Notes: a model not told the origin generated them from the letters alone. A DNA stretch of 64,000 nt from Nitrospirota bacterium (GCA_035490495.1 DATHDE010000201.1:1088-65087); one strand, 5' to 3'; numbered from the stretch's first letter, positions 1,952 to 18,953 are shown. A program made the numbers and translations.

Positions 1952-2623
1952 TCATTCGGCCGTCGGGGTGTCCATTTTGACGATATTCTGTTTTATGGCA
2001 AACTTAACGATGTCGAATCGGGAGTGAAGTCCCAGTTTGGCGCAGATGTTTTCCTGGTGTGCCACCGCAGTCCTGACTGAAATCTTGAGCATCTCGGCGA
2101 TTTCCTTGTGGGTATAGCCTTCGGCAATCAGTTTCAGAACTTCTTTTTCCCGGTCAGTCAGCCTGTCATACGGATCTTCCGAAGGTTCTCCTTTATGGCC
2201 GAGATACCCTTCCACGATGCTTGACGCTACCGTATGGTGAAGATACATTTCTCCCGCAGCAATGGCGTGAATTGCGGTGATCAGATCCGTTGTCACCGCT
2301 TTTTTCAAAATGTATCCCGAGGCGCCGGCCTTGAGAAAACGCCTGACGTAGAGCTGGTCCTCATACTGTGTCAGTACGAGTATTTTGATGTTCGGGTCCG
2401 CTTTCTTAATCTTGATCGTTGCTTCCAGCCCGCCGAGTTTCGGCATGGCGATGTCCATAAGGATAACGTCCGGTTTGAGCCGCTCCGCAGCCTCAATTGC
2501 CTCTCCACCGTCGGCAGCTTCGCCGACAACTTCGAAGTCGTCGCAAATCCTTAAAAAAGCCGCAAGTCCCGCCCGCACGAGCGTATGGTCGTCGGCGATC
2601 AGTATCCTGATTTTTTTTGTCAT
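1952..2623 (-). CDS. NarL/LuxR-family response regulator (REC + LuxR HTH), paralog 1
   Basis: 223 aa. REC motifs (ILIADDH, DVILMDIAMPKLGG) and a LuxR-type HTH (LTDREKEVLKLIAEGYTHKEIAEMLKISVRTAVAH). The start abuts the kinase stop. Confidence 0.9.
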   Translation of the reverse strand: MTKKIRILIADDHTLVRAGLAAFLRICDDFEVVGEAADGGEAIEAAERLKPDVILMDIAMPKLGGLEATIKIKKADPNIKILVLTQYEDQLYVRRFLKAGASGYILKKAVTTDLITAIHAIAAGEMYLHHTVASSIVEGYLGHKGEPSEDPYDRLTDREKEVLKLIAEGYTHKEIAEMLKISVRTAVAHQENICAKLGLHSRFDIVKFAIKQNIVKMDTPTAE

Positions 2624-4429
2624 TTAGGCCTCGTTCAGGGGTACTTTGAGAAATACTGACGTTCCTGTCCCCGGCGACGAGCATACCGTCAGCTGACCCT
2701 TCAGCAATGCCGCACGCTCTTTCATGCCGAGAATGCCCAGTCCCCTGCCGCTCGTTGTGTCGTTCAGCACGGTCTTTGTATCGAACCCATCCCCGTCGTC
2801 CTCGATGCTCATCGTAAAATATTTACCGTCGTCCTTCATAAAGACAAATACCTGGTGCGCATTTGAATGCCGGGCAATATTTGTCGTGGCCTCCTGCACG
2901 AGCCGGAACAGCGTTATCTGAAAATCCGGCGCTAAATACCGGTCAGAGAGTTCTTTCATGTTCAGATGGCATTTGATGCCCCTGGTCTTAAGGTTCCGGT
3001 CGAGGATCCAGACAATCGAAGCTTCGAAGCCCAGATCGTCGAGAACCGTCGGCCGGAGATTTTGTATAAGATTGTTCGTCTCATTGATGATCTTTGTAAT
3101 GTGATCATAGAGTTCGGATATCTTCTTCGGCGAGATCATGTCCGGTCTGATCTTGCAGACGCCGATTTCCATCAGGACCGCTGAAAGCGCCTGAAGCGAC
3201 TCGTCGTGCAGTTCTCGTGCGATCCTCTTGCGTTCATCCTCCTGTGTCGTGATGACTTTTTTCAGCAGCGTCTGGATGGCAAGCTGCTTTTCTTCAATGA
3301 GCTTGGTGCGGTCATAAACGCGTTGTTCCAGGTCCTCGCTGTACTGCTGAATGCTCTTGAGCGACATGGCCAGTTTTGCCCGCGTATCGTCGAAGCTTTT
3401 CGCAAGCGTGCCGATCTCATCCTTGCTTCGTATCGCCACGGGTTCCGAAAGATCGCCCCGCCCGATGCGCTCCGTCGCCCGGATCAGTTCCTGGACCGGT
3501 TTCACGATCCTCCTGCTCATGCCCAGTGCCAGCAGAAAAGCAGTCGCGAGCGCGACAAAGACAAGGATGATGAAATCTTTTTCCAGCTGCGCCGTGGAAA
3601 CGAGAACGCTTTTTTCGGGTTCCTTCCGCGCAACGACCCATGCGGCGTTCGACAGCGGAGCCAGTGCAATAATGTCATTTGTCTTTCCATCCGGTTTTGG
3701 CTGCCCCTCGTGGCACCGATGACACGTGCCGATGAAACTTTTCCTGCCCGCAATGGAGTTGATATATAATGCCCTGTGTTCCAGAGGCGGCTCCGCAATG
3801 CCCGCATGATTGGCTGCAATGACAACGCCGTGTTCGTCGATAAGCTCGATCTCGATGTCCTTCTCGCGCGGGCTGGTCGTAATCAACTGGGCGATCCGCA
3901 GGCTGGCCGGATTGATGATCCCCCCTGCAGCACCGACGATTTCCCCAAAGCGGCCCTTCAACGGGACAACGACAAAGAGGACCCGTTTTTTTACGGGAGC
4001 CAGCGTAAATACGTTCGAGACCATCGGCTTCATTTCGTGGATGGCCCTGCTGACGGCAGGCACGTTCATCAGATTCACCATACCGCTTGCCTGATACGGA
4101 TAGATCTGGACGATGCTTCCCTGTTTGTCCAGAAGAAATACTCCATCCGAAAAAACTGAATATTGGTAGGCGACTTTAAGCGCTTCCCGCTCCGGGGCAT
4201 CATTCCTGTCCTTAAAATCGATTTTCCCGGAGAGGGAGATATCATACAGGCGCGCAAGATTGTTTTGAAGAAGATTGTCAATGTTTCCTGCAATCACTTC
4301 CGCTGCGGCAAGCCGTTCTTCATAAGCCTTTTTGACGCTGTCCCGTATGCGCAGATAATTGATAAATCCGAGACAAACCACGAGGATGAGGTTGCATGCG
4401 AAGATGGTTGTAAAAATTCTTTTTAACAT
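2624..4429 (-). CDS. Sensor histidine kinase (periplasmic Cache-like domain, HAMP, HisKA_3, HATPase_c), paralog 1
   Basis: I placed the start at the internal ATG (MLKRIFTTIFACNLILV, a TM helix); the ORF track extends to 4660. H-box RIARELHDESLQ, G-box GRGLGILGMKERA. The periplasmic domain contains CHRCH at nt 3710-3724. Confidence 0.85.
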   Translation of the reverse strand: MLKRIFTTIFACNLILVVCLGFINYLRIRDSVKKAYEERLAAAEVIAGNIDNLLQNNLARLYDISLSGKIDFKDRNDAPEREALKVAYQYSVFSDGVFLLDKQGSIVQIYPYQASGMVNLMNVPAVSRAIHEMKPMVSNVFTLAPVKKRVLFVVVPLKGRFGEIVGAAGGIINPASLRIAQLITTSPREKDIEIELIDEHGVVIAANHAGIAEPPLEHRALYINSIAGRKSFIGTCHRCHEGQPKPDGKTNDIIALAPLSNAAWVVARKEPEKSVLVSTAQLEKDFIILVFVALATAFLLALGMSRRIVKPVQELIRATERIGRGDLSEPVAIRSKDEIGTLAKSFDDTRAKLAMSLKSIQQYSEDLEQRVYDRTKLIEEKQLAIQTLLKKVITTQEDERKRIARELHDESLQALSAVLMEIGVCKIRPDMISPKKISELYDHITKIINETNNLIQNLRPTVLDDLGFEASIVWILDRNLKTRGIKCHLNMKELSDRYLAPDFQITLFRLVQEATTNIARHSNAHQVFVFMKDDGKYFTMSIEDDGDGFDTKTVLNDTTSGRGLGILGMKERAALLKGQLTVCSSPGTGTSVFLKVPLNEA

Positions 4430-4695: not shown

Positions 4696-5457
4696 TCAGG
4701 ATCGGACGCGGCTTTCCTGCGGCCGGGGCTCGGTCGTTCGATGGCCCTGTTGGTCGTGTTTGAACAAGTCTTCCACGCTGACCCCTTCGATAGCCGCCAG
4801 TTCCACAGGATGTTCGTGCAGCATGCGCTCGCGGGAAATCTTGCCGGTAAAGATAACCGTATCCAGGGGGAACACTTCGGGACTGAATATGGCGTTATAG
4901 ATATGCCAGGTTGCAATCACCAGGAACGCAAGCAGGGCTTCATTCGAGTGCGCCGTTTTGGCTGCGGGGATCACCTCGCCCGGGAACAGCTGCGAAGAGA
5001 GCACGGGAAACCAGAGGATGAAGCCCGTAGCTACCATCAGGCATCCGCCGAGGACAACACCCCAATATTCGAATTTCTGACGATAGTCGTAGCGGTCGCA
5101 CCGTGCAGGATGATCCGCGAGACCGAAGTAAAAGAATATGTTCCTGATGGCGTCCTGATAATCCTTGATGGTCACCAGCATCGACGGCTGCCATTTTCTG
5201 AACAGGATGCCGGTAGCCGCCACCATGACATGAACCGTCAAAAAAACCGTGAAGAGAATTCCCAGGTAGCGATGGATGAGGCGTGTTGTATCCACCCCGC
5301 CGAGCGAGATGATGATCCATTGTGAAATACTGGAGTCATGGAACTTTTGTGACAGGCCGGTGATCACGAGAAGGGCGAATACGATCGCATTCAGGTGGTG
5401 TTCTGCCATGCGGTACACGCCGAATCGCTTGATATATGTCTCTTTGCCGGTGTTCAT
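4696..5457 (-). CDS. b-type cytochrome membrane subunit (FdnI/HydC, Ni/Fe-hydrogenase cytochrome b family), paralog 1
   Basis: About 253 aa from MNTGKETYIKRFGVYRMAEHHLNAIVF. Four predicted TM helices with conserved His residues. Paralogous to 15646-16377. Confidence 0.75.
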   Translation of the reverse strand: MNTGKETYIKRFGVYRMAEHHLNAIVFALLVITGLSQKFHDSSISQWIIISLGGVDTTRLIHRYLGILFTVFLTVHVMVAATGILFRKWQPSMLVTIKDYQDAIRNIFFYFGLADHPARCDRYDYRQKFEYWGVVLGGCLMVATGFILWFPVLSSQLFPGEVIPAAKTAHSNEALLAFLVIATWHIYNAIFSPEVFPLDTVIFTGKISRERMLHEHPVELAAIEGVSVEDLFKHDQQGHRTTEPRPQESRVRS

Positions 5458-5476
5458 TGCGCACCTCCTTTGTTTG

Positions 5477-6937
5477 CTAGCGCAACATCGTATAGCGCCA
5501 TACGTGCAGAAGCATCTGCAGGACAAGTCCTACGAGCATGAACGGGATGAGAATGTGGTAGATCAGTTTGATGATGAATACGAGCGGCGCGTTTTTCAGG
5601 CTCGGCTCGTAATGGGAGAGCCAGGCATCGGGGAACGACTCGGTGGCTCCCGCATGACATTGCCGGCATTGTTTCACGAGCCGCGCCTTGACCAGATTCG
5701 TGCCCGGGCCCTTTGTGCTGGTGATGTCATGCACGCCGTGACAATCGATGCACGTGGCAAGGGCTTTTCTCATTGCGACTGCTGCCGCGCCCCGTTTGTC
5801 CTTCTGCTGGCGGTAGAGCGTGATGGTAAGGCCGTGGAAGTCGTCCAGATAGGAATTGACCACGCCGGGATAGAGCCCGTATTTTTTCATGAGCGTTTTA
5901 TTGGCGTGGCACTGGCCGCAGATATCGGGGACCTTCTCGCGGTAGTCCATGGTACGGGGATCCTGGATGGCATGCGCGGAATGGCAGTCGATGCAGACAG
6001 GGACGTCCGTATTGTGTTCGTTGACCAGCGCCTTGCCGTGAATGCTTGACGCATAGGTAGCATACACCGCGCCATGGCATTTTTTGCAGGTGTGCGCCGT
6101 CTGCGTTTTATCCGTCTGGACCGGGGAGACGAGGTGACTGCCGTGGCAGTCGGTGCATACAGGCGCTTTGAGATTCCCCTGGCTCAGCATGGAATAGTGG
6201 ATGCTGTCGAGGGATTTCGAATACTTGTCGAAATGACAGCGCCTGCACGCGTCGGCATTCGCCAGGGAGAGTTCGCGTGCACTGCGGAATTCGCGCTTCG
6301 GGTGTTCTGCGGAAGAGAAGCCGAAATGGCAGTCAAAGCAACTGAGCTTTCCGTGCACCGATGCATCAAGACCGGCGCTGTCCACCCTGAGCGAAACGGG
6401 TTCGCTGTTCATCATCACAGCGGTCAGTGCATGTTCATGGCATCCGAGACAGTAGCGTCTTTCGCCTGCAACGGTTTTCCCTCCTGCGATGGGAGTAACC
6501 GAGTGGGCATTGTGGCATCTCGTACAAACGGGCGCACTGCTCTCTTTGGTAAGCACTGCGGCATGTATGGGCTTGGCCTTCAGCGAATCAGCTGAATGGC
6601 ACCGGCGGCACATCACCGCGGCCCGCAGCGCATACTGCTCCCGTGAAACAAAAACCTTTCCCTGCCCGCCCTGGTGGTTGTCCGCCGTGTAATCGGTGTG
6701 GCAGGCTGAGCAGCCAAGGGGGGCGTGCACGGACGCCTTGAATGCCGTGGCGTTGACGTATGCTTCCAGGGTCTCGTTCGTTCGCAATGATACGCTCAGC
6801 CCCTTCTGCCCGTGACACGACAGGCACGAGAGCGATTCTTCGGATAATTCCCCTGCCGGTGCGTTCGTACCTGAGCCCGGGAAAAAGCTCAAACACCAGA
6901 GCAGGGCTGCTCCCCATCGTATGATTTTTTGTATCAT
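5477..6937 (-). CDS. Multiheme c-type cytochrome (13 CXXCH), C-terminal membrane anchor, paralog 1
   Basis: Start taken at MIQKIIRWGAALLWCLSFF (signal-like). I counted 13 CXXCH motifs. C-terminal hydrophobic helix (LIYHILIPFMLVGLVLQMLL). Confidence 0.85.
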   Translation of the reverse strand: MIQKIIRWGAALLWCLSFFPGSGTNAPAGELSEESLSCLSCHGQKGLSVSLRTNETLEAYVNATAFKASVHAPLGCSACHTDYTADNHQGGQGKVFVSREQYALRAAVMCRRCHSADSLKAKPIHAAVLTKESSAPVCTRCHNAHSVTPIAGGKTVAGERRYCLGCHEHALTAVMMNSEPVSLRVDSAGLDASVHGKLSCFDCHFGFSSAEHPKREFRSARELSLANADACRRCHFDKYSKSLDSIHYSMLSQGNLKAPVCTDCHGSHLVSPVQTDKTQTAHTCKKCHGAVYATYASSIHGKALVNEHNTDVPVCIDCHSAHAIQDPRTMDYREKVPDICGQCHANKTLMKKYGLYPGVVNSYLDDFHGLTITLYRQQKDKRGAAAVAMRKALATCIDCHGVHDITSTKGPGTNLVKARLVKQCRQCHAGATESFPDAWLSHYEPSLKNAPLVFIIKLIYHILIPFMLVGLVLQMLLHVWRYTMLR

Positions 6938-7051: not shown

Positions 7052-7426
7052 TCAACGAGCCTCATCCTTTTTTCTTTTTCCACCCTTCCTCTTGCTGATG
7101 AAAAATGCATGCAGCGGCCTCCAGCCGAAGAAGGCGCTCTTTCCTGCAGCGTCGGCTATCCGCTGTCCTGCACGTTTGCCGATGCCGGCGATCTTTTTCG
7201 CGAGGAAGCTTATGGTCATAATAATTCCCACGAGCGGCAGAAACATCGCATACATCACACCCAGCAGCGGCCCCGACAAAAGCATCACCGAACTCGGCGC
7301 TTTAATGAAGCCGGTCGCGCTGTCGCCAGGCAGAACATCATCCTTTTCCAGCTCAACCCGTTCACCTGTATTCATATTCCAGTAGGTGCCTGGTCCTGCT
7401 TTCTGTTCTCCTTTCCATAACAACAT
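7052..7426 (-). CDS. Small membrane protein, FGWRP-motif family (copy 1)
   Basis: 124 aa from an ATG preceded by GAGGTG. Contains GTYWNMNTGERVELEKDDVLPGD, one or two TM segments, FFGWRP and a Lys/Arg-rich tail. Paralog of 10226-10591. Confidence 0.6.
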   Translation of the reverse strand: MLLWKGEQKAGPGTYWNMNTGERVELEKDDVLPGDSATGFIKAPSSVMLLSGPLLGVMYAMFLPLVGIIMTISFLAKKIAGIGKRAGQRIADAAGKSAFFGWRPLHAFFISKRKGGKRKKDEAR

Positions 7427-7751
7427 GGAGATCACCTCGCTTTCTCGGTTCGTTTTGTTTCACTGTTCAAGCTCAGCTTAGCAGAGAAAAAAAAGGAAAG
7501 ATATTGGATGCTTATCCGAACGCCGCAGAAATAGCATCCAAAACAGTAATAATTCTTGTACGAGTTCCAGGCGGATTGAAATACAAGTGGATAAAGTATA
7601 TTGTTACGTTGTCTGGGGGGTAAATTTGCCTAGGCCTTTTGTTGCATGTATCATCATGCTATTTTCTTTAAAAAAACAAAATGTTCAGCACGATTAGAAG
7701 ATGGCAGAAATAGGAAATAGCCGGAACAAATCGAAGGAAAAGGTATCATGA

Positions 7752-8384
7752 TCAGATGATAAGCATCGACCTCTCACCGTTCACATATCGTCTGGCTATG
7801 AGCAGCAGTTTAAGATAGTATTCGTCAAGACAGGGCACAAAGTCTTGTTTAGACACGGTTGCTGATTCGGTTCGTCCATCTGGTTTCAGGAGCATCTGCT
7901 CCAAAACAGGCAAAGCGCCTGATAAAAGAGCTATTCCCTTTTCGACATCCATCTCAATAACCCCGTCCAGTTCCTCGCGCTGCAGTTTCAATGCATGAGA
8001 TTCCACGTGCGCCGGAAGGAGGAATACATCCTGAAATTCATACTCGCGTACGCCCTCGGCGAAACAGTACACGAATATCCGTTTCCCGACCGGGATGAGG
8101 TCAGAGAACTGCACTTCGAGACCCAGTTCCTCCCTGATCTCGCGCGGGGCGGCGTCCTCTACCTGTTCACCCGAGGCATAATGTCCGCCTACGCTCACGT
8201 CATACCTAGCGGGAGCGATTTTTTTATCACGGGACCGTTTCTGGAAAAGTACCGTGCCCTTGAGCCGGTTCACGATCAGACAATGAAAGGCGCCGTGCCA
8301 GACACCGGTCCGGTGCGCCTCGTCCCGCGATATCGTTTCACCGGTTTTTTCACCCCGGCAATCAAGTATATCGAAAAACTCCAC
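7752..8384 (-). CDS. Nudix hydrolase
   Basis: 210 aa with a Nudix box, GGHYASGEQVEDAAPREIREELGL. Confidence 0.8.
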   Translation of the reverse strand: MEFFDILDCRGEKTGETISRDEAHRTGVWHGAFHCLIVNRLKGTVLFQKRSRDKKIAPARYDVSVGGHYASGEQVEDAAPREIREELGLEVQFSDLIPVGKRIFVYCFAEGVREYEFQDVFLLPAHVESHALKLQREELDGVIEMDVEKGIALLSGALPVLEQMLLKPDGRTESATVSKQDFVPCLDEYYLKLLLIARRYVNGERSMLII

Positions 8385-8490
8385 GAAAAGGCTCCTGTCT
8401 TGTTTCGAGAATTATACGCTGAATGCTTTTTTGTGGCAACAGGTTCGCCATTTCTAGTATACTGGACGACAGCCTGCTTGCCCTTGGCCT

Positions 8491-9483
8491 ATGAGCCTTT
8501 CAAGCCTTTATAATTCCTACCCGGGCCTGTATATCGCCCAGTCCTTTCTCCACTCGTTGACGACCGCGCTGATCGTGGATGCGGCCATCCGCGTCTGGAA
8601 AATCGAGCATCCTGCGATGCGCCAGAAATTCCGCTTCTTTATCATCTTCTTCCCCGTCGTTTCCTATCCCCTCTACCAACTCGTCAATCCGGACCGCGGC
8701 TCGTTGTCATTCAGGCTGGGTGCTCTTTTCGACTCGTCCCGCTGGTTGAACCTCGAACTGCTGTCGGGAGTTTCGGCCGGCATAATTTTTATCGTTCTTC
8801 TCGCGCTGACCACACTGCTGTTTTTTTCGCAGGAGCTGGTTCCCGTAGTGCAACACGCGCTGCAGTCCAGACGCGAGGAGCTGTTAGGAGAGAAGCTCTC
8901 CGAGGATTCTCCGGTCATGCGGGCGCTGACCGCCTTCACCGATGTCAAACCTGATGTATTTATCATTCAGGATGACGATCTTGTGCTCTTTGTCACGACC
9001 GGGAAAAAACCCGCCCTCTATCTTTCGACGGGATCAATGCGGGCGCTCAGTGAGGACGAACTGCATACGGCAATCGCGCATGAGCTTGCTCATATTGAGC
9101 GCAACAAGAGACCGCTGCTGGTCATCACTTTTCTTCTCAGGGTTCTGCAGTTTTTCAATATCGTTTCCCTTATAGAATTCCGGAGAATCGTGCAGGAAGA
9201 AGAAATCATCTGCGATGACACCGCCGTTACCCAGACCGGCAAGCCGCAGGCACTGGCCGCCACGCTGCGCAAATTCCACCCGGAAAATGACGGCGAGGCG
9301 GACCCCCAGCCGAACGCAGCGATAAACACCCGTGAGCGGATGGAGCAGTACGGCCATTCTCTGTTGATCGAAAGCCGCATTACACGCCTGGAAACCTATG
9401 ACGAGCATCCCCGCACAGGGGGCGTGATCCCCCTGCTCATCACCATGGCTGCGGCTGTTGCACTTAACTACTCGATAGTCTGA
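8491..9483 (+). CDS. M56 (BlaR1-like)/M48-type membrane zinc metallopeptidase
   Basis: 330 aa with multiple TM helices and an HEXXH site (AIAHELAHIERNK). Confidence 0.7.
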   Translation: MSLSSLYNSYPGLYIAQSFLHSLTTALIVDAAIRVWKIEHPAMRQKFRFFIIFFPVVSYPLYQLVNPDRGSLSFRLGALFDSSRWLNLELLSGVSAGIIFIVLLALTTLLFFSQELVPVVQHALQSRREELLGEKLSEDSPVMRALTAFTDVKPDVFIIQDDDLVLFVTTGKKPALYLSTGSMRALSEDELHTAIAHELAHIERNKRPLLVITFLLRVLQFFNIVSLIEFRRIVQEEEIICDDTAVTQTGKPQALAATLRKFHPENDGEADPQPNAAINTRERMEQYGHSLLIESRITRLETYDEHPRTGGVIPLLITMAAAVALNYSIV

Positions 9484-9495
9484 GGGGAACCATAC

Positions 9496-10026
9496 ATGCG
9501 CGACCGTATCTATAGCGTCATACTCTTCTTCGTAGCAGTAGCGGTCCTGATAGGCATTTTGAAAGTATTAAATTGGGTTCCGGCGGCGATGCAGGAAGGC
9601 CTCCCGAGCAAATACGCATCCCTTGAAGAAGTAAAGTCGCGGCTGAACCTCCATGCCGTTTATTCTCCCTCATACTATCCCCAGGGTCTCCGCTGGCCCC
9701 CGGTCCTGATCATGGCGCAGACAAAACCGAACCTGCTGATCCTCCAGGAATATACGCAGCAGAACAGCAACTCCATTTCGCTCATCATTGCGCAAACATC
9801 GGGAAATGCAGCCCTCCCCGATCTGCCGGTCAAAATGTCCAAAAAAACCGAAGAAGTTCCCTTTGATCTTAAAGGACGCAGTGCAATGCTTGAAGTAGGG
9901 ATATGCAAGCCGTCAGGGCAATGCAGCCGCGTTACCTGGGAAGAAGGGAATTTTCGCATCATGCTGATCATGACCGCGCCCCCTTCTGAAGCAGTGAAGC
10001 TTGCAGACAGCATGATTGCAAGCTGA
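9496..10026 (+). CDS. Membrane-anchored hypothetical protein (possibly DUF4367-like)
   Basis: 176 aa with an N-terminal TM helix (IYSVILFFVAVAVLIGIL). Lies 13 nt after the peptidase gene. The domain call is from memory only. Confidence 0.45.
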   Translation: MRDRIYSVILFFVAVAVLIGILKVLNWVPAAMQEGLPSKYASLEEVKSRLNLHAVYSPSYYPQGLRWPPVLIMAQTKPNLLILQEYTQQNSNSISLIIAQTSGNAALPDLPVKMSKKTEEVPFDLKGRSAMLEVGICKPSGQCSRVTWEEGNFRIMLIMTAPPSEAVKLADSMIAS

Positions 10027-10225
10027 GGCAGAACAACAAAAGTAGTATTTTTTTTCTTCTTTTGTCCCTCCTCATCTTTTTTTCATTCAGAACATTTACC
10101 CCCGTTATCTAAGAGTTAATGCCGATGGAGTTAGGAAGTTCTGCTGATATACAAAAAAATGACTGTTTGATAAGGTTACTTAACGCAAGTAAGGAAGGCA
10201 TTTGAACGAAAGGAGGCATCACGAC

Positions 10226-10591: not shown

Positions 10592-10644
10592 TATAAACTT
10601 TCCCTGCGGCAGACCGCGGGGTATGCAAGTGAATCCTCATCCCT

Positions 10645-11294: not shown

Positions 11295-11304
11295 CCTGCA
11301 GCCA

Positions 11305-11341
11305 GGGGAGAAGCGCGAAGGACGGGAGAGCGCTTCTCCCC
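11305..11341 (+). other. Perfect 12-bp intercistronic hairpin before the cytochrome gene
   Basis: GGGGAGAAGCGC-13 nt-GCGCTTCTCCCC, followed by TGATTGCAACC (a poor U-tract), then GAGGAGG and the ATG at 11370. Confidence 0.4.
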
Positions 11342-11369
11342 TGATTGCAACCGAGGAGGATTAAGCAGA

Positions 11370-11843
11370 ATGAAAATCTTGGCAGCCTCATTCATAGCCT
11401 GGTGCTGCATGCTGCTGTTCACGGCCGCCGGACATGCAGCCGACAATACGCCGCGGGGGATCATCAAGCTGGACAGCATTGCCAAGTTCTACCTGCCGGT
11501 TCGTTTCGACCACGCCAAGCACGCAGCCATTGCCGGCGACTGCGGCAAATGCCATCACCAGCACGGCAACAGCGCGAGCCTCCCCTGCCGCGAATGTCAT
11601 AATCTCACGGTATCGACGTTCAAGGGATCGAAAAAAGCGTCATTCATGGCGTGCAAAAACTGCCACGGCGCCTCCGATCCTGCGGCCCCGGGAATGCCCG
11701 GGCTCAAGGTTGCGTACCACCGTCAGTGTTTTCAATGCCACCGCGGCATGGGGGGAGTTGGAGAAAACCCCCAAGGCTGTACACAGATCTGCCATGGGAA
11801 GAACGATCAGCAGGCAAAGCGCGGAACGAAGTCCGCTCAATAA
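11370..11843 (+). CDS. Periplasmic c3-like multiheme cytochrome c (4 CXXCH + 1 CX3CH)
   Basis: 157 aa. Signal peptide MKILAASFIAWCCMLLFTAAGHA. Heme motifs CGKCH, CRECH, CKNCH, CFQCH and CTQICH. Confidence 0.8.
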   Translation: MKILAASFIAWCCMLLFTAAGHAADNTPRGIIKLDSIAKFYLPVRFDHAKHAAIAGDCGKCHHQHGNSASLPCRECHNLTVSTFKGSKKASFMACKNCHGASDPAAPGMPGLKVAYHRQCFQCHRGMGGVGENPQGCTQICHGKNDQQAKRGTKSAQ

Positions 11844-11888
11844 TGCATGTTGCACCGTGCTATCTGGACTGAGGAGGAATAATCCAAT

Positions 11889-12878
11889 ATGGAGAAGAAC
11901 GATAGCAAGCCCCAGGAGCCCGGACAGACGAAACCGGACTTCGACGAACCGGGCGACAGTTTAAACTTCACAAGAAGAAGGTTCATGGGGACGATGGCCG
12001 CAATCGGCGGCGCCGTCCTTGCATCGAAGTCAACAAATGCTGACGCAAAGGAGTTCGAGGGCTCGAAAGACCGGTATGGAGTATTATACGATCTGTCGAT
12101 GTGCGTCGGGTGCCGCAGCTGTGAAAAGGCCTGCAACGAGGAAAACAAGCTGGGAGCGCCGAGCAAGCCTTTTGATGATCCTTCCGTGTTCGAGGAGCAG
12201 CGCCGCCCCATGGTCAATGCCTACACCGTGGTGAACCGCTATGCGAATCCCAAGGACCCGTCGCAGCCGCTCTTCCGCAAGATTCAGTGCAATCATTGCA
12301 ACGAACCTGCCTGTGCCACGGCCTGCCCCGTCCACGCCTACACCAAGAATCCGGAAGGGCCGGTCACGTACGATGTGAGCCTCTGCTTCGGATGCAGGTA
12401 CTGCATGACCGCGTGCCCCTACTACGTTCCTGCGTACGACTACAACAGCGCCCTCGAACCGCGCATCTCGAAATGCACGATGTGCTATCATCGGGTGAAG
12501 GAAGGCAAGCCCACGGCATGCTCCGAGATCTGCCCCACAGGCGCCCTCACCTTCGGGAAACGGGAGGACTTGATTAAACTCGCACGAGAGCGTATGATGA
12601 AAAACCCCGGCAAGTACGTGGAACATATCTTCGGCGAACATGAGGCAGGGGGATCGAGCTGGCTGTACATCTCCAGCGTCCCCTTCGAGACCTACGGATT
12701 TCCGACGGACATTCAGAAAGCGCCGCTGCTCGAAAATACCAAGGGGTTCCTCGCAAGCGTTCCGCTTGTATTCACGATCTGGCCGGCGCTGTTCGGCATG
12801 CTCTATTCCGCGACCAAGCATCGTGACAGCTCCGACGAGGGGAGCGGAGATCACGGGAAACAGGAGGATAAAAAATGA
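11889..12878 (+). CDS. Tat-exported 4x[4Fe-4S] ferredoxin-like subunit (HybA/NrfC/PsrB-type)
   Basis: 329 aa. Twin-arginine signal (TRRRFMGTMAAIGGAVLA) and four Cys clusters (CVGCRSCEKAC, CNHCNEPACATACP, CFGCRYCMTACP, CTMC...CSEICP). C-terminal hydrophobic helix. Confidence 0.85.
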   Translation: MEKNDSKPQEPGQTKPDFDEPGDSLNFTRRRFMGTMAAIGGAVLASKSTNADAKEFEGSKDRYGVLYDLSMCVGCRSCEKACNEENKLGAPSKPFDDPSVFEEQRRPMVNAYTVVNRYANPKDPSQPLFRKIQCNHCNEPACATACPVHAYTKNPEGPVTYDVSLCFGCRYCMTACPYYVPAYDYNSALEPRISKCTMCYHRVKEGKPTACSEICPTGALTFGKREDLIKLARERMMKNPGKYVEHIFGEHEAGGSSWLYISSVPFETYGFPTDIQKAPLLENTKGFLASVPLVFTIWPALFGMLYSATKHRDSSDEGSGDHGKQEDKK

Positions 12879-14116
12879 GCAACGACAGCATGGCCAAATC
12901 GGATAACTTCCGGTACGGCTTTCTCGAGAAACTGCGGATGGGCATGTCCTGGGAGGAATACCGGCGGAGCCTCCTGACACCGTTCAATATCATTGCTGCC
13001 ATCATCCTGAGCATCGGCCTGCCCCTGATCGTGCTGCGCTTCGTCAAGGGTCTCGCCTATGTAACACACGCATCAAATGAATATCCCTGGGGCCTGTTCC
13101 TCGGCTGGGGGCTGTTCGGCGGTGTGCCGCTCTCGGCCACGGGCTTTGTCATGGCCACGGCATACTATATCTTCGGTTTCAAGGCATACCACCCCCTGGT
13201 GCGTCTCAGCGTGCTGACGGGCCTTTTGGGGTACTTCTTCGCCGTCATCTATCTCCTGATCGATCTGGGAAGACCCTGGCGCATCTACTTCCCGATGTTC
13301 ATCGGTTACGGCACGGCATCGGTCCTGTTCCTTGTTGCCTGGCACGTTGCGACGTACCTCACGGTCCAGATCGTCGAGTTCAGCCCGGCAATTCTTGAGT
13401 GGCTCAAATCGAGGCGCGTGCGGAGGTGGGCGCTGATGATCACGATCGGCATGACCATCTCGGGCATCATCCTGTCGACGCTTCATCAATCCGCCCTGGG
13501 CGCCATGTTCCTGCTTGCGCCCGGCAAGCTCCATCCGCTTTGGTTTTCGACGTACATCCCCGTCATGTCTCTCTGTTCGAGCGTCTATGCGGCGCTCTGC
13601 ATGATCATCGTGGTGAGCACGCTCTCAGCGCGGTATTTGCGCAACCGGGCGGACGCGACCTTCCTCGGCAACCTCGACCGGCTGACCCTGGGGCTCGGCA
13701 AGGGTGCCGTGGTCGGCATCTACGTGTACTTTGCGCTCAGGATGATCGCGATCGCGCATGACGACAACTGGGCGCTCCTTGGAACGCCGTACGGCTACTG
13801 GTACCTCGTCGAAGTGCTCGGGTTCGTGCTCCTGCCCGCGATCATCATGAGCAGCGGGGTGAAAACCGAGCGTGCAGCCTTCATCCGTTTCGGCGCTTTT
13901 CTCGGTGTCATCGGCGTCCTGTTAAACAGGATCAACGTTTCCATCGTGGCGTTCAACTGGAACCTGCCGGGGCATTTGCACCACATCATTCCGCCGTGGC
14001 GGGAAGTTGCAATCGTAGCCGCGGTCGCAACACTGCATATCCTTGTCTTCCGGTGGATCGTAAACCGCATGCCGGTCATTCGGGAGGATGAGACTTATCA
14101 CGAACTGCACTCATAA
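12875..14116 (+). CDS. NrfD/PsrC/HybB-family polytopic membrane quinone-interacting subunit
   Basis: 413 aa with about 10 TM helices. ATGA start/stop overlap with the FeS gene. Family assigned from context and topology. Confidence 0.7.
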   Translation: MSNDSMAKSDNFRYGFLEKLRMGMSWEEYRRSLLTPFNIIAAIILSIGLPLIVLRFVKGLAYVTHASNEYPWGLFLGWGLFGGVPLSATGFVMATAYYIFGFKAYHPLVRLSVLTGLLGYFFAVIYLLIDLGRPWRIYFPMFIGYGTASVLFLVAWHVATYLTVQIVEFSPAILEWLKSRRVRRWALMITIGMTISGIILSTLHQSALGAMFLLAPGKLHPLWFSTYIPVMSLCSSVYAALCMIIVVSTLSARYLRNRADATFLGNLDRLTLGLGKGAVVGIYVYFALRMIAIAHDDNWALLGTPYGYWYLVEVLGFVLLPAIIMSSGVKTERAAFIRFGAFLGVIGVLLNRINVSIVAFNWNLPGHLHHIIPPWREVAIVAAVATLHILVFRWIVNRMPVIREDETYHELHS

Positions 14117-14188: not shown

Positions 14189-15634
14189 ATGAATGTTAAG
14201 AATGTCATATTCCTGTGCGCGCTCCTGCCGCTTTTGAGCATGCTCCTGCCGCTTCCGGGCGGTGCTGCTGCCGAAACGATATCCAATCAAAACGATGCCT
14301 GCCTCGCCTGCCATGCGAAGCAGGATATCGTCATTTCGTTCCAGAACAACGAATCGCTGTCGGGTCATGTCGATGTTGAAAAGCTGAAAGCCTCGGCCCA
14401 CGGTGAGCTGGCCTGCTCTGCCTGCCACATCGAATTCGCCTCCGCTCAGCATCCGAAAAGAATTTTCAGGAGCCGCGAACAGTTCACGGTACGGGCGTCG
14501 CTCGTCTGCAGGCGCTGTCACAGCGACGAACAGCTGAAGGCACGGCCGGTCCACGTCGAACTGCTCGAACGCCAGAAAGCCGGCGCTCCCGCTGTCTGCG
14601 CTGACTGCCATGGCGCGCATTCGGTCATTCGAGTCACCCGGAGAAAGTCACTCAACGACGACGCGAAAAGCTGCCTCAGTTGCCATCGACGTCCCATCCG
14701 CATCGCCTTCCAGAAAGGCGAAGCCCAGTCGTATATCGTGGATGCGACGGTCCTGGAGGGATCGGTCCACAACAAACTTTCATGCGCAGACTGCCACTAC
14801 GGGTTTTCACGGGATGAACATCCGAAGCGCCAGTTCCGTTCTCCGCGCGACATGACCATCGCTTCGGCCGAGTCCTGCCGCAGGTGCCACTTTGACAAAT
14901 ACTCAAAGTTCCAGGACAGCATCCACTACACGAAGCTGAGCCAGGGCTTTCTCAAGGCCCCGGTTTGCACGGATTGTCACGGCCATCATTCCATCTCTTC
15001 CATTTCAAAGGAGAGGATCGTCAGCGCCAACCGCTGCCGCAAGTGCCATCCCGACATATACGACACGTATGCGAAAAGCGTTCACGGCAACGCACTGGTG
15101 AATGAATTCAACCAGGACGTTCCCGTGTGCGTTGACTGTCATACGACGCATGACATACAGAATCCCCACAGCCTGGAATTCCGGGAACGCGTACCTCAGA
15201 TGTGCAGCTCGTGCCATGCAAATAAGGGGATTATGGGGAAATACGGACTGTCCACGGATGTCATGAAGACCTATCTGTCCGATTTCCACGGTGTCACGCT
15301 CGGCTTTTACATAAAGCAGAAGAATCTGCTCCCTGCGCAGGCAAAGGGGATCGCTGTCTGCACCGACTGCCATGGAACGCACAATATCACGAGCACGGTG
15401 AGCCCGGATGCTACGACCGTCAAGGCCAATCTGGTACAACGTTGCCGGAAATGCCATGCAAATGCAACGGAAAATTTCCCCGATGCGTGGATATCGCATT
15501 ACAAACCAAGTCTTAAGCGGGCGCCCCTGTTGTTTGTCATTACGATCCTGTATAAGTTCTTGACTCCCCTCATCATCTTAGGATTGGTTTTGCAGATCTT
15601 GCTGCACATCTGGCGCTATGCAGTGAGCAGGTGA
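14189..15634 (+). CDS. Multiheme c-type cytochrome (13 CXXCH), C-terminal membrane anchor, paralog 2
   Basis: 481 aa with a signal peptide, 13 CXXCH motifs and a C-terminal helix (LIILGLVLQILLHIW). Homologous along its length to 5477-6937. Confidence 0.85.
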   Translation: MNVKNVIFLCALLPLLSMLLPLPGGAAAETISNQNDACLACHAKQDIVISFQNNESLSGHVDVEKLKASAHGELACSACHIEFASAQHPKRIFRSREQFTVRASLVCRRCHSDEQLKARPVHVELLERQKAGAPAVCADCHGAHSVIRVTRRKSLNDDAKSCLSCHRRPIRIAFQKGEAQSYIVDATVLEGSVHNKLSCADCHYGFSRDEHPKRQFRSPRDMTIASAESCRRCHFDKYSKFQDSIHYTKLSQGFLKAPVCTDCHGHHSISSISKERIVSANRCRKCHPDIYDTYAKSVHGNALVNEFNQDVPVCVDCHTTHDIQNPHSLEFRERVPQMCSSCHANKGIMGKYGLSTDVMKTYLSDFHGVTLGFYIKQKNLLPAQAKGIAVCTDCHGTHNITSTVSPDATTVKANLVQRCRKCHANATENFPDAWISHYKPSLKRAPLLFVITILYKFLTPLIILGLVLQILLHIWRYAVSR

Positions 15635-15645
15635 AGGAGATGCAC

Positions 15646-16377
15646 ATGGCAAAACCACTGGATGAACACGATAGAATCAAATTCAGGCGCTTCGGTCCGT
15701 ACCGGATCATCGAACACTGGCTCCATGCGGTTATATTCTGCCTCCTCGTTGTCACCGGGCTCGCACAGAAGTACCATGCCTATGATTTTTCCCAGTGGAT
15801 TGTCTATCGCCTGGGCGGCATCGATTCAGCGCGTCTCACCCACCGCATTGCAGGCTTCCTTCTTATCATTCTCGTTGTAGAACACATCGCTATAGCGGTG
15901 TTCGGCATCGCCAAGCGGCGCTGGCAGGCATCCATGCTGATTCAGATCAAGGACTACCGGGATGTCATCACGAACCTCAAGTATTATTTCGGCGTCAAGA
16001 ACCATCCGGCCGCATGCGACCGCTTCGACTACAAGCAGAAATTCGACTACTGGGGGGTGCTCGTCAGCAATACCGTCATGATCGTCACCGGCATTGTGCT
16101 CATGTTTCCTATTGTCACGACAAAATTCCTGTACGGCGAGATCGTGCCTGCAGCGAACGTGATCCATACGAACCAGTCCCTGCTCATCATTCTCGTTATT
16201 GCGATCTGGCACATTTACAATTCCATTTTCAGCCCTGAAATATTCCCGCTCGACACCAGCATTCTGAGCGGCTATATCTCCCGGGAACGTATGCAGCATG
16301 AACATCCGCTGGAACTGGAGCGACGCGAACGTGAGGAGCGCAAGGCACTGAGGGCAGCGCGCCAGAAACACGACTGA
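15646..16377 (+). CDS. b-type cytochrome membrane subunit (FdnI/HydC family), paralog 2
   Basis: ATG lies 6 nt after AAGGAG; the ORF track starts at a GTG at 15631, overlapping the upstream stop. Strong similarity to 4696-5457 (e.g. IWHIYNSIFSPEIFPLDT vs TWHIYNAIFSPEVFPLDT). Confidence 0.75.
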   Translation: MAKPLDEHDRIKFRRFGPYRIIEHWLHAVIFCLLVVTGLAQKYHAYDFSQWIVYRLGGIDSARLTHRIAGFLLIILVVEHIAIAVFGIAKRRWQASMLIQIKDYRDVITNLKYYFGVKNHPAACDRFDYKQKFDYWGVLVSNTVMIVTGIVLMFPIVTTKFLYGEIVPAANVIHTNQSLLIILVIAIWHIYNSIFSPEIFPLDTSILSGYISRERMQHEHPLELERREREERKALRAARQKHD

Positions 16378-16480
16378 CTTTCGTGCTGCCCGGCTTCCCC
16401 GCCCTGTTCGTGCTTTTCAAACACTCGCCGATGGGGTATACTGAATAGGTTGCGACGTCTGATCAGAACACCGGCCCTTC

Positions 16481-18322
16481 ATGCAAAAAAAGCTCATCAT
16501 CGCCCTTATTCTCTATGTCGTGGTCATTTCCATCGGTCTCGGCATCGTGAGCACGATTGCGGTACAGGATGTCATCGAACGGTCCCTTCAAAAGAGCCTT
16601 ACGTCAGCGAACACGATCGCAAACCAGCTCGATTTTCTCCTGCAGACGAACATCAGCAGGCTCTACGACATATCCCTCTCCGGCAAAGTTGACTTTCGGG
16701 AACGCAACTGGGCGCCCGCGCGCCGTTTGATCGAATCCATTTACCAGTATTCAATTTTCACCGAAGGCGTCTTCCTGCTCGACAAGCACGGCAATACACT
16801 CATGTCGTACCCCGCGCGCGATTACAACCGTGAGAACCTGCTGTTTATCCCCTGGGTGAGCCGGGTCCTTTCCGAAGGAAGGCCGATCATTTCGAATGTC
16901 TACACGATCGAACCTATCAAAAAGCCCCTCATCTTCGTGCTTGTCCCTCTTCGCAATACGTCAGGCGATATCGTCGGCGCAGCCGGCGGCGCCATCAACC
17001 CCACGAACTCTGTCATGAGTCGCATTCTCCGCGGGGTGAAGGCGGACACAGGCAACTATTATCTCGAGATCATCGACTCCAACGAAGTAGTGGTCGCCTC
17101 GGACAAGAACAGCCGCATCCTGACGCACCATGACCACGACGGCTCTCTGGGTAAAATGATCAAGGACGGTGCGTCGGGCATCAGGAACTGCGGCCACGGA
17201 TTTTCCCACGATACGCCCGACAACAAAACGCAGGACATGCTGGCCATCGTGCCTCTCCAATCGGTGTCCTGGGCCGTGGTGTTCGGCCAGGCAAAGGATG
17301 AAATCTATCTTCCCGCCCAGCACTTGAAGTATCACTTTTTGCTCATTGCCCTTATATTCATCGGAACAGCGCTCATCTTCTCACTCGGCATCAGCCGCAA
17401 CATCGTAAGCCCCATCCGGTCTCTCATCTCCGCCGCGTACCGCATCGGCCAGGGCAATCTCAACGAACCTGTGGGGAATGTGGGCAGCGATGAAATAGCG
17501 GCTCTGGGCCGCAGTGTCGATGCCATGCGCGAACGGCTCGCCAAATCCCTCGAAAGCATCCAGCGTTACAATGCCGAACTTGAGGAGCGCGTGCTGCATC
17601 GGACCCGTGAACTCGAGGAGAAACAGCAGGCGAACGCATCGCTGCTGAAAAAACTGATCACCTCGCAGGAAGACGAGCGCAAAAGAATCGCCCGGGAGCT
17701 CCATGATGAGTCCCTCCAGACGCTTTCCGCAATCCTGATGAATATCGAGATGTGCAGGCTGCATCCTGATCTGATCAATGTCGATCGGGTTACGATCATC
17801 CGGGACACGGTCAGCCGGGTCATCAACGAGATGCAGAAAGTCGTGCAGAATCTGCGGCCGACGGTCCTCGACGACCTCGGATTCGAAGCTGCGGTTGTCT
17901 GGCTTGTGGACAATAACCTCCGCAACAAGGGCATTCACTGCCATTTGAACATCTTCGAACTGGCGGAGGAGCAGCTCGGCCCGGAGTTGCAGATTACGCT
18001 GTTTCGAGTGATCCAGGAAATGACGACGAATATCGCGCGCCATGCTGGCGCCAGGAATGCTTCCCTCTACATGAAAACCGATAACCAGACGTTCACACTT
18101 CTTATCGAGGATGACGGGTCGGGTTTCGATACCAAGACGGTGTTCGGCAGCCTGCAAAGCGGGCGAGGTCTGGGTCTCCTCGGCATGAGGGAGCGCGTGG
18201 CTCAGGTAAACGGAAGCCTGGATATCTGCTCCGCACCGGGTGAAGGTACCATTGTGCGCTGCACTGTCCCGATTTCACAGGAGAATGCATATGGGGATAA
18301 AAACACGGATCGTAATAGCTGA
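16481..18322 (+). CDS. Sensor histidine kinase (Cache-like, HAMP, HisKA_3, HATPase_c), paralog 2
   Basis: 613 aa. H-box RIARELHDESLQ, G-box GRGLGLLGMRERV. The position equivalent to CHRCH in paralog 1 reads CGHGFSH. Confidence 0.85.
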   Translation: MQKKLIIALILYVVVISIGLGIVSTIAVQDVIERSLQKSLTSANTIANQLDFLLQTNISRLYDISLSGKVDFRERNWAPARRLIESIYQYSIFTEGVFLLDKHGNTLMSYPARDYNRENLLFIPWVSRVLSEGRPIISNVYTIEPIKKPLIFVLVPLRNTSGDIVGAAGGAINPTNSVMSRILRGVKADTGNYYLEIIDSNEVVVASDKNSRILTHHDHDGSLGKMIKDGASGIRNCGHGFSHDTPDNKTQDMLAIVPLQSVSWAVVFGQAKDEIYLPAQHLKYHFLLIALIFIGTALIFSLGISRNIVSPIRSLISAAYRIGQGNLNEPVGNVGSDEIAALGRSVDAMRERLAKSLESIQRYNAELEERVLHRTRELEEKQQANASLLKKLITSQEDERKRIARELHDESLQTLSAILMNIEMCRLHPDLINVDRVTIIRDTVSRVINEMQKVVQNLRPTVLDDLGFEAAVVWLVDNNLRNKGIHCHLNIFELAEEQLGPELQITLFRVIQEMTTNIARHAGARNASLYMKTDNQTFTLLIEDDGSGFDTKTVFGSLQSGRGLGLLGMRERVAQVNGSLDICSAPGEGTIVRCTVPISQENAYGDKNTDRNS

Positions 18323-18953
18323 CGACCATGCGCTTGTACGCCAGGGCATTGTTGCTTTTCTGAAGATGACCGATACGTATGAAGTCGTTGCCGAGGCTTC
18401 GGACGGGGTGGAAGCCATCGAAGCGGTCAATAAATGGAAGCCCGACATCGTCATCATGGACATTTCCATGCCGAAGCTGGGGGGTCTGGAAGCGACCGTG
18501 GAAATTAAGAAAAACTTTCCGTCGGTGAAGATCCTCGTACTGACGCAGTACGAGGATATGATGTACATCCGCCGTTTTTTCAAGGCGGGAGCCTCGGGGT
18601 ATCTCGTCAAGAAGGCGGTTGGCGTGGATTTGCTCACGGCCCTGGAGGCCATCATGTCAGGTAAAATGTATGTCCACCCATCCATTGCAACATGCGTCGT
18701 CGACGGATATCTCGGTATCAACAAGGGCGAACCCGCCGAGGATCCCTATGACACGCTGACGGATCGTGAAAAGCAGGTGTTGAAACTCATCGCGGAGGGA
18801 TATACACAGAAGGAAACTGCAGACATCCTGGCAATCAGCACAAAAACAGTCATCACTCATCAGACGAATCTGAGCGAAAAGCTGAACATCCGCACACGCG
18901 CAGGCCTGATCAAGTTCGCGATACAGAAAGGAATCATCAAGATCGATTCGTAA
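18291..18953 (+). CDS. NarL/LuxR-family response regulator, paralog 2
   Basis: Start taken at MGIKTRIVIADDH, 7 nt after AGGAG, giving a 32-nt overlap with the kinase. REC plus LuxR HTH (LTDREKQVLKLIAEGYTQKETADILAISTKTVITH). Confidence 0.9.
   Translation: MGIKTRIVIADDHALVRQGIVAFLKMTDTYEVVAEASDGVEAIEAVNKWKPDIVIMDISMPKLGGLEATVEIKKNFPSVKILVLTQYEDMMYIRRFFKAGASGYLVKKAVGVDLLTALEAIMSGKMYVHPSIATCVVDGYLGINKGEPAEDPYDTLTDREKQVLKLIAEGYTQKETADILAISTKTVITHQTNLSEKLNIRTRAGLIKFAIQKGIIKIDS

Follow-up and report, generated by a model that had tools for sequence, protein, structure and literature searches.

Gene content of the locus

The 64,000-nucleotide stretch of DNA from a Nitrospirota bacterium analysed here (GCA_035490495.1, DATHDE010000201.1:1088-65087; called the window below) harbours two divergently oriented gene clusters. 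Each of them codes for a small membrane protein with an FGWRP motif, a membrane-anchored 13-haem cytochrome c (c13), an FdnI-type dihaem cytochrome b, a sensor kinase and a NarL/LuxR-family response regulator (Table 1). The original prediction for this DNA had described them as the two arms of a mirror-image duplication of five genes around a centre at 7436-10225, with four extra genes present in the right arm only. The listing and translation of open reading frames (ORFs) and Pfam searches located all ten arm genes and the four additional genes where they had been placed. Exactly 13 CXXCH motifs were counted in each cytochrome c, as claimed, together with a C-terminal transmembrane helix, and both peptides quoted in the prediction are present in the translations. 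Several of the true starts are likely to lie downstream of the longest-ORF starts, and the starts were corrected using homologue alignments and an independent gene call.

Table 1. Features of the two clusters and of the region between them, in the order of their positions in the window.
Feature	Position	Strand	Remarks
Left NarL/LuxR-family response regulator	1952-2623	-	Pfam Response_reg 4.8e-28, GerE 3.4e-17
Left sensor kinase	2624-4429	-	Longest ORF to 4660; homology begins at Met78; Pfam HAMP, HisKA_3, HATPase_c
Left FdnI-type dihaem cytochrome b	4696-5457	-	Longest ORF to 5526; Pfam Ni_hydr_CYTB 1.2e-13
Left 13-haem cytochrome c	5477-6937	-	Longest ORF to 7039; homologues align from MIQKII on
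Left FGWRP small protein, type A	7052-7426	-	Longest ORF to 7435; 127 aa; membrane protein
NUDIX hydrolase	7752-8384	-	Pfam NUDIX 5.4e-12
M56/M48-type membrane zinc metalloprotease	8491-9483	+	HEXXH; Peptidase_M56 3.4e-10; heads the conserved cassette
Conserved protein C3u	9496-10026	+	One N-terminal transmembrane helix and a domain of ~150 residues with two conserved Cys
Conserved promoter element, 20-bp dyad	10127-10152	+	Consensus AATAGGAA-N4-TTCCAATT; here TTAGGAAGTTCTGCTGAT
Right FGWRP small protein, type A	10226-10591	+	Longest ORF from 10202; 121 aa, 100% identical to P0121
FGWRP-family small protein, type B	10896-11294	+	FSWRP motif; HmcD-like N-terminal transmembrane helix, then a second transmembrane helix
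Intercistronic hairpin	11297-11349	+	Between the small protein B and pentahaem genes
Periplasmic cytochrome, c3/HmcA-C-terminal-like	11370-11843	+	Signal peptide; 157 aa; 4 CXXCH and 1 CX3CH
HmcB-like Tat-exported iron-sulphur protein	11889-12878	+	C-terminal transmembrane helix; NF045715 HmcB 401.8 bits; RRRF Tat motif
HmcC-like NrfD-family integral membrane subunit	12875-14116	+	NF045714 HmcC 411 bits; Pfam NrfD 9.8e-16
Right 13-haem cytochrome c	14189-15634	+	13 CXXCH; signal peptide; C-terminal anchor helix
Right FdnI-type dihaem cytochrome b	15646-16377	+	Longest ORF from 15631; gene call; Ni_hydr_CYTB 1.9e-12
Right sensor kinase	16481-18322	+	Pfam dCache_1, HAMP, HisKA_3, HATPase_c
Right NarL/LuxR-family response regulator	18291-18953	+	Longest ORF from 18240; gene call, 220 aa; Pfam Response_reg and GerE

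The cassette comprises seven or eleven genes and is widespread

A scan of one genome per species yielded 197 genomes with a relative. We inspected the best 80 loci (numbered with the prefix L below) and searched all of their ORFs with the proteins of the window. The succession of genes for c13, cytochrome b, kinase and regulator is kept in 80/80 loci, as far as the contigs allow. In about 60 of them, these genes come at the end of a longer series, all in the same direction, that starts with the genes for the M56 protease and C3u, continues with the small proteins A and B, a probable pentahaem cytochrome (c5), and the HmcB-like and HmcC-like subunits, and is in some cases preceded by the NUDIX gene in the opposite direction. 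The centre and the right arm of the window together represent this dominant long order, and the left arm represents a short form, in which c13, cytochrome b, kinase and regulator follow at most a small A gene (~11/80 loci). Three further genomes, reached via a left-arm protein (L082, L083 and L085), have the M56 and C3u genes, small A, c13, cytochrome b, kinase and regulator in a row, in unrelated surroundings. As M56 and C3u genes thus precede short clusters too, amid flanking genes that have nothing in common, the conserved unit consists of seven genes in the short form or eleven in the long one, not five. The predicted five-gene order does recur in related genomes, but as part of these larger units. 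Similarly, the genes at 10896-14116 are found in the right arm only, but rather than being extra they represent the majority state among the surveyed loci, and the centre is no neutral spacer, since the genes at 8491-9483 and 9496-10026 belong to the cassette. The NUDIX gene is found upstream of M56 in only ~12/80 loci and is missing from L082, L083 and L085; it is probably a frequent neighbour and not a part of the system.

Fifty-nine of the 80 loci carry Nitrospirota-lineage labels, and most of the others come from metagenome-assembled genomes (MAGs) labelled 'Deltaproteobacteria' or Deferrimicrobia, or unclassified. The cassette is typical of uncultured, Thermodesulfovibrionia-like Nitrospirota and of Deferrimicrobia/'Deltaproteobacteria' MAGs. 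Two MAGs labelled Actinomycetota (L050 and L081) also have a full long cassette. Their c13 proteins cluster with 'Deltaproteobacteria'/Deferrimicrobia sequences, and mis-binning thus seems likelier than transfer. The family of 13-haem proteins, of about 482 residues, is large. At 90% identity, the matches to it (E <=1e-50) make up more than 3,000 clusters, none of which is informatively named.

The two arms are ancient paralogues

BLASTP comparisons between the left and right arms gave 61% identity for the regulators, 45% for the kinases, 55% for the cytochromes b, 51% for the cytochromes c and 34% for the small proteins, and the DNA of the two arms is alignable in two stretches only, with 64-65% identity. 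As announced in the prediction, the paralogues are diverged and by no means near-identical copies. Neighbour-joining analysis of 82 c13 proteins united the copies of short clusters, including the left-arm protein, in a separate clade. The sister of the latter is the c13 of L070, a short cluster of MAG MFD05764 bin136, and the c13 of L002, the long cluster of the same MAG, groups with the right-arm protein. The c13, cytochrome b, kinase and regulator of the left arm are 62-84% identical to their short-type orthologues, compared with 45-61% to their right-arm paralogues, the extreme case being the regulator (84% with L070, 61% with the right arm). That left-arm proteins are closer to orthologues from short clusters elsewhere than to their neighbours in the window indicates that the duplication is old, and because the four proteins follow the same pattern, it affected the cassette as a unit and predates the separation of these species. 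Both cassette types have been retained by at least three species, but not in one fixed arrangement. The two clusters follow each other in tandem in L003, converge in L037, L057 and L060, and diverge in the window; for L070 and L002, the repeated contig ends suggest a tandem arrangement as well.

The similarity between the arms is thus neither due to chance nor to a collapsed or duplicated assembly, and the comparisons identify them as the short and the long form of one cassette, ancient paralogues that happen to be placed divergently here. An identical gene order on opposite strands about a centre might be explained by a segment that was recently duplicated in inverted orientation, or by two mirrored copies that arose as an assembly artefact. 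However, this explanation is refuted by the low identities between the paralogues at both the protein and the DNA levels, by the separate clade of the short-type copies, by the higher identities of the left-arm proteins to those of other species, and by the presence of both types, in other arrangements, in at least two other species. We find it hardly credible, and the notion of a mirror-image duplication should be abandoned.

The 13-haem cytochrome c and its predicted cytochrome b partner

The 13-haem protein is composed of a signal peptide, a region with 13 invariant CXXCH motifs and a C-terminal transmembrane helix (450-468 and beyond). In addition to those of the haem-binding motifs, it contains exactly 13 other invariant His residues (H71, H88, H122, H144, H194, H211, H246, H267, H299, H321, H367, H398 and H437). 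As there is a candidate distal ligand for every haem, the protein looks like an electron wire without a catalytic haem rather than an enzyme. At the cytoplasmic end of the anchor helix, we found a near-invariant H473-x-W475-R476 motif, whose His is shared by at least 90% of 67 sequences.

The cytochrome b has four transmembrane helices and four His residues that are invariant in 74 sequences, H29, H71, H179 and H194. They align with the haem ligands H18, H57, H155 and H169 of FdnI (1kqf_C). By analogy with the Fdn-N formate dehydrogenase, haem bP would face the periplasmic cytochrome, with haem bC and a quinone site close to it at the cytoplasmic side. From such a placement of the haems, we infer that electron transfer would be transmembrane and electrogenic.

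Accompanying genes

In the long form, three genes encode a second set of putative redox proteins. The small c3-like cytochrome has four CXXCH motifs and one CX3CH motif in 56/56 homologues, and since these five motifs are accompanied by five further conserved His residues, it is probably a pentahaem protein. The HmcB-like protein has 16 conserved Cys residues and would bind four [4Fe-4S] clusters. The HmcC-like protein completes this set.

The first of the four supposedly extra genes codes for a third paralogue of the FGWRP family, 31% identical to the others and carrying an FSWRP motif, and the right arm thus has two small proteins. We distinguish two types, A and B, that share the FGWRP/FSWRP-type motif. 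In type A proteins, the N-terminal ~45 residues are acidic and contain an invariant GTYW...G.R...LPG signature; after them come one transmembrane helix and SFGWRPxEAYLxGKKKK, in which FGWRP and the Lys-rich tail are invariant. According to the positive-inside rule, the tail should reside in the cytoplasm. The AlphaFold2 model of type A comprises an N-terminal domain of four beta strands, with a predicted local distance difference test (pLDDT) score of ~90, and then a long helix. A Foldseek search with this model, which is good for residues 1-80, returned insignificant matches to beta fragments only. Type A has no Pfam family and forms just 79 clusters among 5.8 billion proteins. In type B proteins, an HmcD-like helix and a second transmembrane helix precede the FGWRP-type motif, and in 54 loci their gene immediately precedes that of the pentahaem cytochrome. 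The first 30 residues of type B match the NCBIfam model NF045712 (HmcD) with an E-value of 2.6e-3 in the window and of 3e-7 to 1.7e-4 in five orthologues, all six sequences scoring below the cut-off of 34 bits.

The M56 and C3u proteins are common to both forms. The HEXXH motif of the protease is conserved in 49/49 homologues. The C3u gene was identified in 55 loci, every time directly after M56. C3u has no Pfam match; its predicted periplasmic domain is characterised by a G.C.....CS motif, with two highly conserved Cys residues, and a WPP motif. Neither a BlaI-type repressor that might be the partner of M56 nor a sigma factor was found, by Pfam searches of the window or in the 80 loci.

The hairpin that follows the small B gene has 20-nt arms that are 90% complementary, with a predicted folding free energy of -37 kcal/mol and a z-score of -5.9, and it lacks a T-run. 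Of 37 homologous spacers, unrelated in sequence, more than half also have z-scores below -2, which suggests a conserved intercistronic element for processing or stability. Rfam gave no match anywhere in the 64-kb window.

Farther away in the window, a gene at 29745-31535 (-) codes for a flavocytochrome c, with an N-terminal tetrahaem c3-type domain (4 CXXCH) joined to an FAD_binding_2 domain. This protein is similar to periplasmic reductases of the fumarate/urocanate type and is a possible periplasmic electron acceptor enzyme. Another gene, at 36595-37527 (+), encodes an unusual fusion between a CopD-like membrane domain and a cytochrome b5-like haem-binding domain with one CXXCH motif.

Sensor kinase and promoter elements

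The left kinase is composed of a transmembrane helix, a periplasmic Cache-like domain that contains a CHRCH motif, a second transmembrane helix, and HAMP, HisKA_3 and HATPase_c domains. A CXXCH motif (mostly CH[RQV]CH) is found around residue 235 in 46 of the 69 kinases of the family (34/55 of those from long clusters and 9/10 of those from short ones). Because it is located between the two transmembrane helices, just after the dCache_1 match, it should be periplasmic. Periplasmic sensor domains with covalently bound haem, in which a CXXCH motif is part of a PAS- or Cache-like domain, are exemplified by the GSU0582 and GSU0935 chemoreceptors of Geobacter. The presence of a c-haem motif in a periplasmic Cache-like domain suggests that the ancestral kinase probably senses the periplasmic redox state, haem binding being predicted from the motif. 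The left kinase of the window has retained this motif, whereas the right kinase has only its first Cys, in an NCGHGFSH sequence. The closest orthologues of the latter (L002 and L004-L007) similarly have the first Cys only and no CXXCH.

We identified a 20-bp dyad in the interval that separates C3u from the first small gene, using k-mer enrichment followed by an iterated position weight matrix. It scores above the 99th percentile of shuffled sequences in 46/54 homologous upstream regions and is the top match in three loci outside the training set, between C3u and small A. The dyad found upstream of the right small A gene is the top match in the whole window, and of the 78 strong matches in 1.27 Mb of loci, 67 are followed by a small-protein or c13 gene on the same strand at a distance of no more than 400 bp. 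In 42/77 sites, the distance between the dyad centre and the first nucleotide of a -10-like hexamer is exactly 31 nt, which would put this centre at around -43 with respect to the transcription start. Such a position is typical of class II activator sites of the lux-box type. As the regulator of the cassette has a LuxR/GerE helix-turn-helix domain, it may well activate its own operon through the dyad. The conserved promoter lies after C3u, and the M56 and C3u genes should thus form a separate transcription unit.

No dyad was detected upstream of the left arm in the scan of the 64 kb with the matrix; all that this arm has is a generic sigma70-like match at 7624-7595. Both the sensor and the promoter have thus diverged, the haem motif being present on the left only and the dyad on the right only, which argues for different induction conditions of the two copies. 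These differences support a functional divergence between them, and the differential regulation put forward in the original prediction is plausible.

Other observations concern the upstream regions and their surroundings. An exact 10-mer, ATTTACCCCC, is present only twice in the window, at 7616-7625 (-) and 10094-10103 (+), with one copy in the upstream region of each arm, both oriented alike with respect to their operons. A NarL-type heptamer (TACCCC) was considered as an explanation, but the 10-mer was dropped as an operator because it is not conserved in relatives; it may be due to chance or specific to the lineage. The pair of small A and B genes has been amplified two to three times in tandem in L003, L005, L006 and L070. 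Each amplified A gene of L003 has its own dyad, and the contig ends of L070 carry the same dyad repeated, suggesting that this assembly breaks at repeats. Finally, directly beyond the left regulator is a gene for a sigma54-dependent activator with a PAS domain (Sigma54_activat, HTH_8; 396-1748 (-)). A gene of this kind is near the cassette in only 4/80 loci.

Proposed function and alternatives

We propose, with a probability of roughly 60%, that the window harbours two anciently diverged paralogues of one respiratory cassette that encodes a bc conduit between the menaquinone pool and the periplasm, with CbcBA of Geobacter sulfurreducens as its closest analogue. A periplasmic cytochrome c with 13 bis-His haems, tied to the membrane by its C-terminal helix, would pair with a dihaem FdnI-type cytochrome b, and this module would move electrons across the membrane between menaquinone and periplasmic cytochromes. 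By analogy with FdnI, the quinone site of the cytochrome b should face the cytoplasm. Consistent with the link to CbcBA, the PDB entry that matches the two 13-haem proteins best by sequence is 28pb_A, a 278-residue protein deposited as 'Cytochrome c' with seven CXXCH motifs in the alignments. Its E-values are 2.6e-5 with the c13 profile, where it is the only PDB match better than 1e-4, and 1.5e-4 with the left paralogue. It is probably CbcA, whose crystal structure is cited as 'PDB 2BPB' in a 2026 review; we suspect that the same entry is meant. In the long form, the pentahaem cytochrome, the iron-sulphur protein, the NrfD-type subunit and the HmcD-like small protein would constitute a second, Hmc/Nhc-like quinone-reactive module, facing the periplasm. 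In modules of the NrfD/iron-sulphur type, such as Psr, ACIII and Qrc, the quinone sites are generally near the periplasmic face. The haem-bearing kinase would probably sense the periplasmic redox state, and the regulator would probably activate the operon from the dyad centred near -43. Both the formation of complexes by these proteins and their quinone reactivity are predicted from their sequences.

A number of observations weigh against this reading. All the member genomes are MAGs, and the cassette is known from sequence alone. When the other ORFs of the 80 loci were clustered, no outer-membrane conduit, terminal reductase or hydrogenase was found to be conserved beside the cassette; the clustering brought out housekeeping synteny only, between close relatives only. 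The model leaves the M56 protease, C3u and the FGWRP proteins unaccounted for. The cytochrome b of the cassette has all four FdnI-type His residues, compared with three in CbcB as described, the fourth ligand coming from the c subunit. The similarity of the 13-haem proteins to 28pb_A, the probable CbcA, covers only the first ~140 residues, corresponding to four to five haems. The AlphaFold2 model of the 13-haem protein, built from an alignment of 67 sequences, has a pLDDT of 66.7 and a predicted template modelling score of 0.43, and a Foldseek search of the PDB with it found nothing below an E-value of 0.1. Lastly, all NCBIfam matches of the cytochromes and of the Hmc-like subunits are below the curated cut-offs.

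Electrons might flow inward. The 13-haem/b pair would then operate like FdnHI and reduce menaquinone at the cytoplasmic face with electrons from a low-potential donor in the periplasm or outside the cell, which would generate a proton-motive force. The FdnI-like geometry of the haem ligands is consistent with such inward uptake, the Fdn-N complex of Escherichia coli runs in this direction, and CbcBA itself has been suggested to operate in reverse in syntrophic sulphate reducers (Seep-SRB2). Nevertheless, the sequence itself fixes no direction, and the homologous architecture in Geobacter oxidises menaquinol, so that we deem inward uptake possible but doubtful. One may also speculate that the long operon encodes a self-contained, cytochrome-only redox loop that is proton-motive and does without a dedicated substrate enzyme. 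The 13-haem wire would take electrons from a low-potential periplasmic or extracellular pool and deliver them via the FdnI-type cytochrome b to the cytoplasmic-side quinone site, and the NrfD/iron-sulphur/pentahaem module would re-oxidise menaquinol at the periplasmic side and pass the electrons on to a higher-potential pool. The haem-Cache kinase would set expression according to the periplasmic potential, and the M56, C3u and FGWRP proteins would represent an assembly or regulatory layer. Unlikely as it is, such a loop would allow the cell to gain energy from the passage of electrons from one periplasmic redox pool to another.

That the long operon is an orthologue of the Hmc (or Nhc) complex of sulphate respiration, in which electrons from a periplasmic hydrogenase or formate dehydrogenase would reach the membrane by way of cytochrome c3, with the 13-haem/b pair standing in for HmcA and HmcE, appears quite unlikely to us. 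The HmcB-like and HmcC-like proteins are close relatives of HmcB and HmcC (401.8 and 411.4 bits), the small B protein supplies an HmcD-like helix, the c3-like protein matches the C-terminal end of HmcA, and some of the hosts are named as sulphur-cycling lineages (Ca. Sulfobium, Dissulfurispiraceae). However, these matches are all below the equivalog cut-offs (420 bits for HmcB and 550 for HmcC), and that of the c3-like protein is restricted to positions 487-539 of the 541 of HmcA (E 3.4e-13; 49 bits, cut-off 400). No 16-haem HmcA, NarI-type HmcE or CCG-domain HmcF was found in the cluster of the window or in the 80 loci, and the cytochrome b is of the PF01292/FdnI type. Moreover, the short form does without any Hmc-like genes, and the cassette is also present in Deferrimicrobia, described as non-sulphate-reducing. 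Alternatively, the cassette could chiefly be a signalling or stress device instead of a respiratory conduit, in which the M56, C3u and FGWRP proteins and the two-component system detect periplasmic redox stress, and the cytochromes serve as input or sink. Proteases of the M56/BlaR1 type do act as signal transducers, the M56 and C3u genes are always linked to the cassette, and the haem motif of the kinase and the two conserved periplasmic Cys residues of C3u would befit a sensor. It would be a very costly one, though, with up to 18 c-haems, two b-haems, four iron-sulphur clusters and two quinone-type subunits. The promoter after C3u, which sets M56 and C3u apart from the rest, and the lack of a BlaI-type repressor or sigma factor make this device very unlikely.

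If the cassette is indeed a bc conduit, its presence in at least 197 species genomes makes it a widespread respiratory module. Soils, aquifers and sediments are rich in Thermodesulfovibrionia-like Nitrospirota and in Deferrimicrobia, of which almost none have been cultured. Their membrane electron transport has so far been inferred from distant models. Combining a CbcBA-like with an Hmc-like module, and equipped with a recognisable putative operator and a probable redox sensor of its own, the cassette represents a concrete, testable candidate for the link between their quinone pool and redox partners in the periplasm or outside the cell. The two diverged copies in one genome offer a natural experiment on how conduits are tuned to different conditions.

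Comparison with known systems

In the literature on 13-haem cytochromes, Nitrospirota, Sulfobium and Deferrimicrobium, we found no named complex or description that corresponds to the cassette, and, as judged from the sequence comparisons, no characterised complex matches it. The closest mention is in a paper on MBNT15/Deferrimicrobium, which reported unnamed clusters of a multihaem cytochrome c with a four-helix transmembrane cytochrome b, and of iron-sulphur/NrfD proteins with a cytochrome c, as putative quinol:acceptor reductases.

Several known systems share parts of the architecture. Like Fdn, the cassette has a cytochrome b with four haem-ligand His residues in the same helices and a periplasmic electron-transfer subunit with one C-terminal transmembrane helix. 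However, a 13-haem cytochrome takes the place of the iron-sulphur subunit FdnH, no molybdopterin subunit was found in any locus, and the cytochromes b score 63.1 and 51.9 bits with TIGR01583 (FdnI), for a cut-off of 115.85. The long form shares with Hmc and Nhc a c3-type cytochrome, an iron-sulphur protein with four clusters that is exported by the twin-arginine translocation (Tat) pathway and has a transmembrane anchor, an NrfD subunit and a small HmcD-like helix. It differs from them by a cytochrome with about five haems instead of 16 or nine, by the lack of HmcE and HmcF, and by the position of the HmcD-like gene, which comes first and is fused to the FSWRP module. We take these genes to resemble the reduced Nhc type. 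With NrfBCD, Cbc4 and Qrc, the long form has in common a multihaem cytochrome c, a four-cluster iron-sulphur protein and an NrfD-like subunit that together would form a periplasm-facing quinone module. Unlike in those systems, the cytochrome is a soluble c3-like protein, and co-transcription with the bc module is predicted; CbcS of Cbc4 is a membrane-anchored tetrahaem protein of the NapC/NirT type, and Qrc includes the molybdopterin-like QrcB.

The other Geobacter complexes provide further points of comparison. Cbc4 (CbcSTU) comprises the NapC-like tetrahaem cytochrome, an iron-sulphur protein and a membrane subunit, and Cbc5 (CbcEDC) a 12-haem cytochrome c (CbcC), a two-haem HAMP protein (CbcD) and a membrane protein (CbcE). 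CbcL (Cbc1) combines a HydC/FdnI-type dihaem cytochrome b with a periplasmic multihaem cytochrome c, as the cassette does, but in a single fused polypeptide with nine haems and six transmembrane helices, in contrast with two proteins, 13 haems and 4+1 helices. CbcBA of G. sulfurreducens (GSU0593-0594) is a low-potential inner-membrane bc cytochrome, made of a seven-haem c subunit whose C-terminal transmembrane helix contains a His residue and of a dihaem b subunit with four transmembrane helices and three His residues. Its genes are in the order c then b, and the sigma54-dependent regulator BccR is encoded divergently. The cassette differs from it by its 13 haems instead of seven, by the four FdnI-type His residues of its cytochrome b, by its HisKA_3/NarL pair, present in all loci, and by the addition of the FGWRP proteins, M56, C3u and, in the long form, the Hmc-like module. 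In both systems, nevertheless, a multihaem cytochrome c anchored by a C-terminal helix with a conserved His is encoded directly upstream of a four-helix dihaem cytochrome b of the PF01292 (HydC/FdnI/PhsC) superfamily, with a dedicated regulator alongside. The analogy with the Geobacter Cbc complexes drawn in the original prediction thus holds, and it is with CbcBA that the architecture of the cassette fits best.

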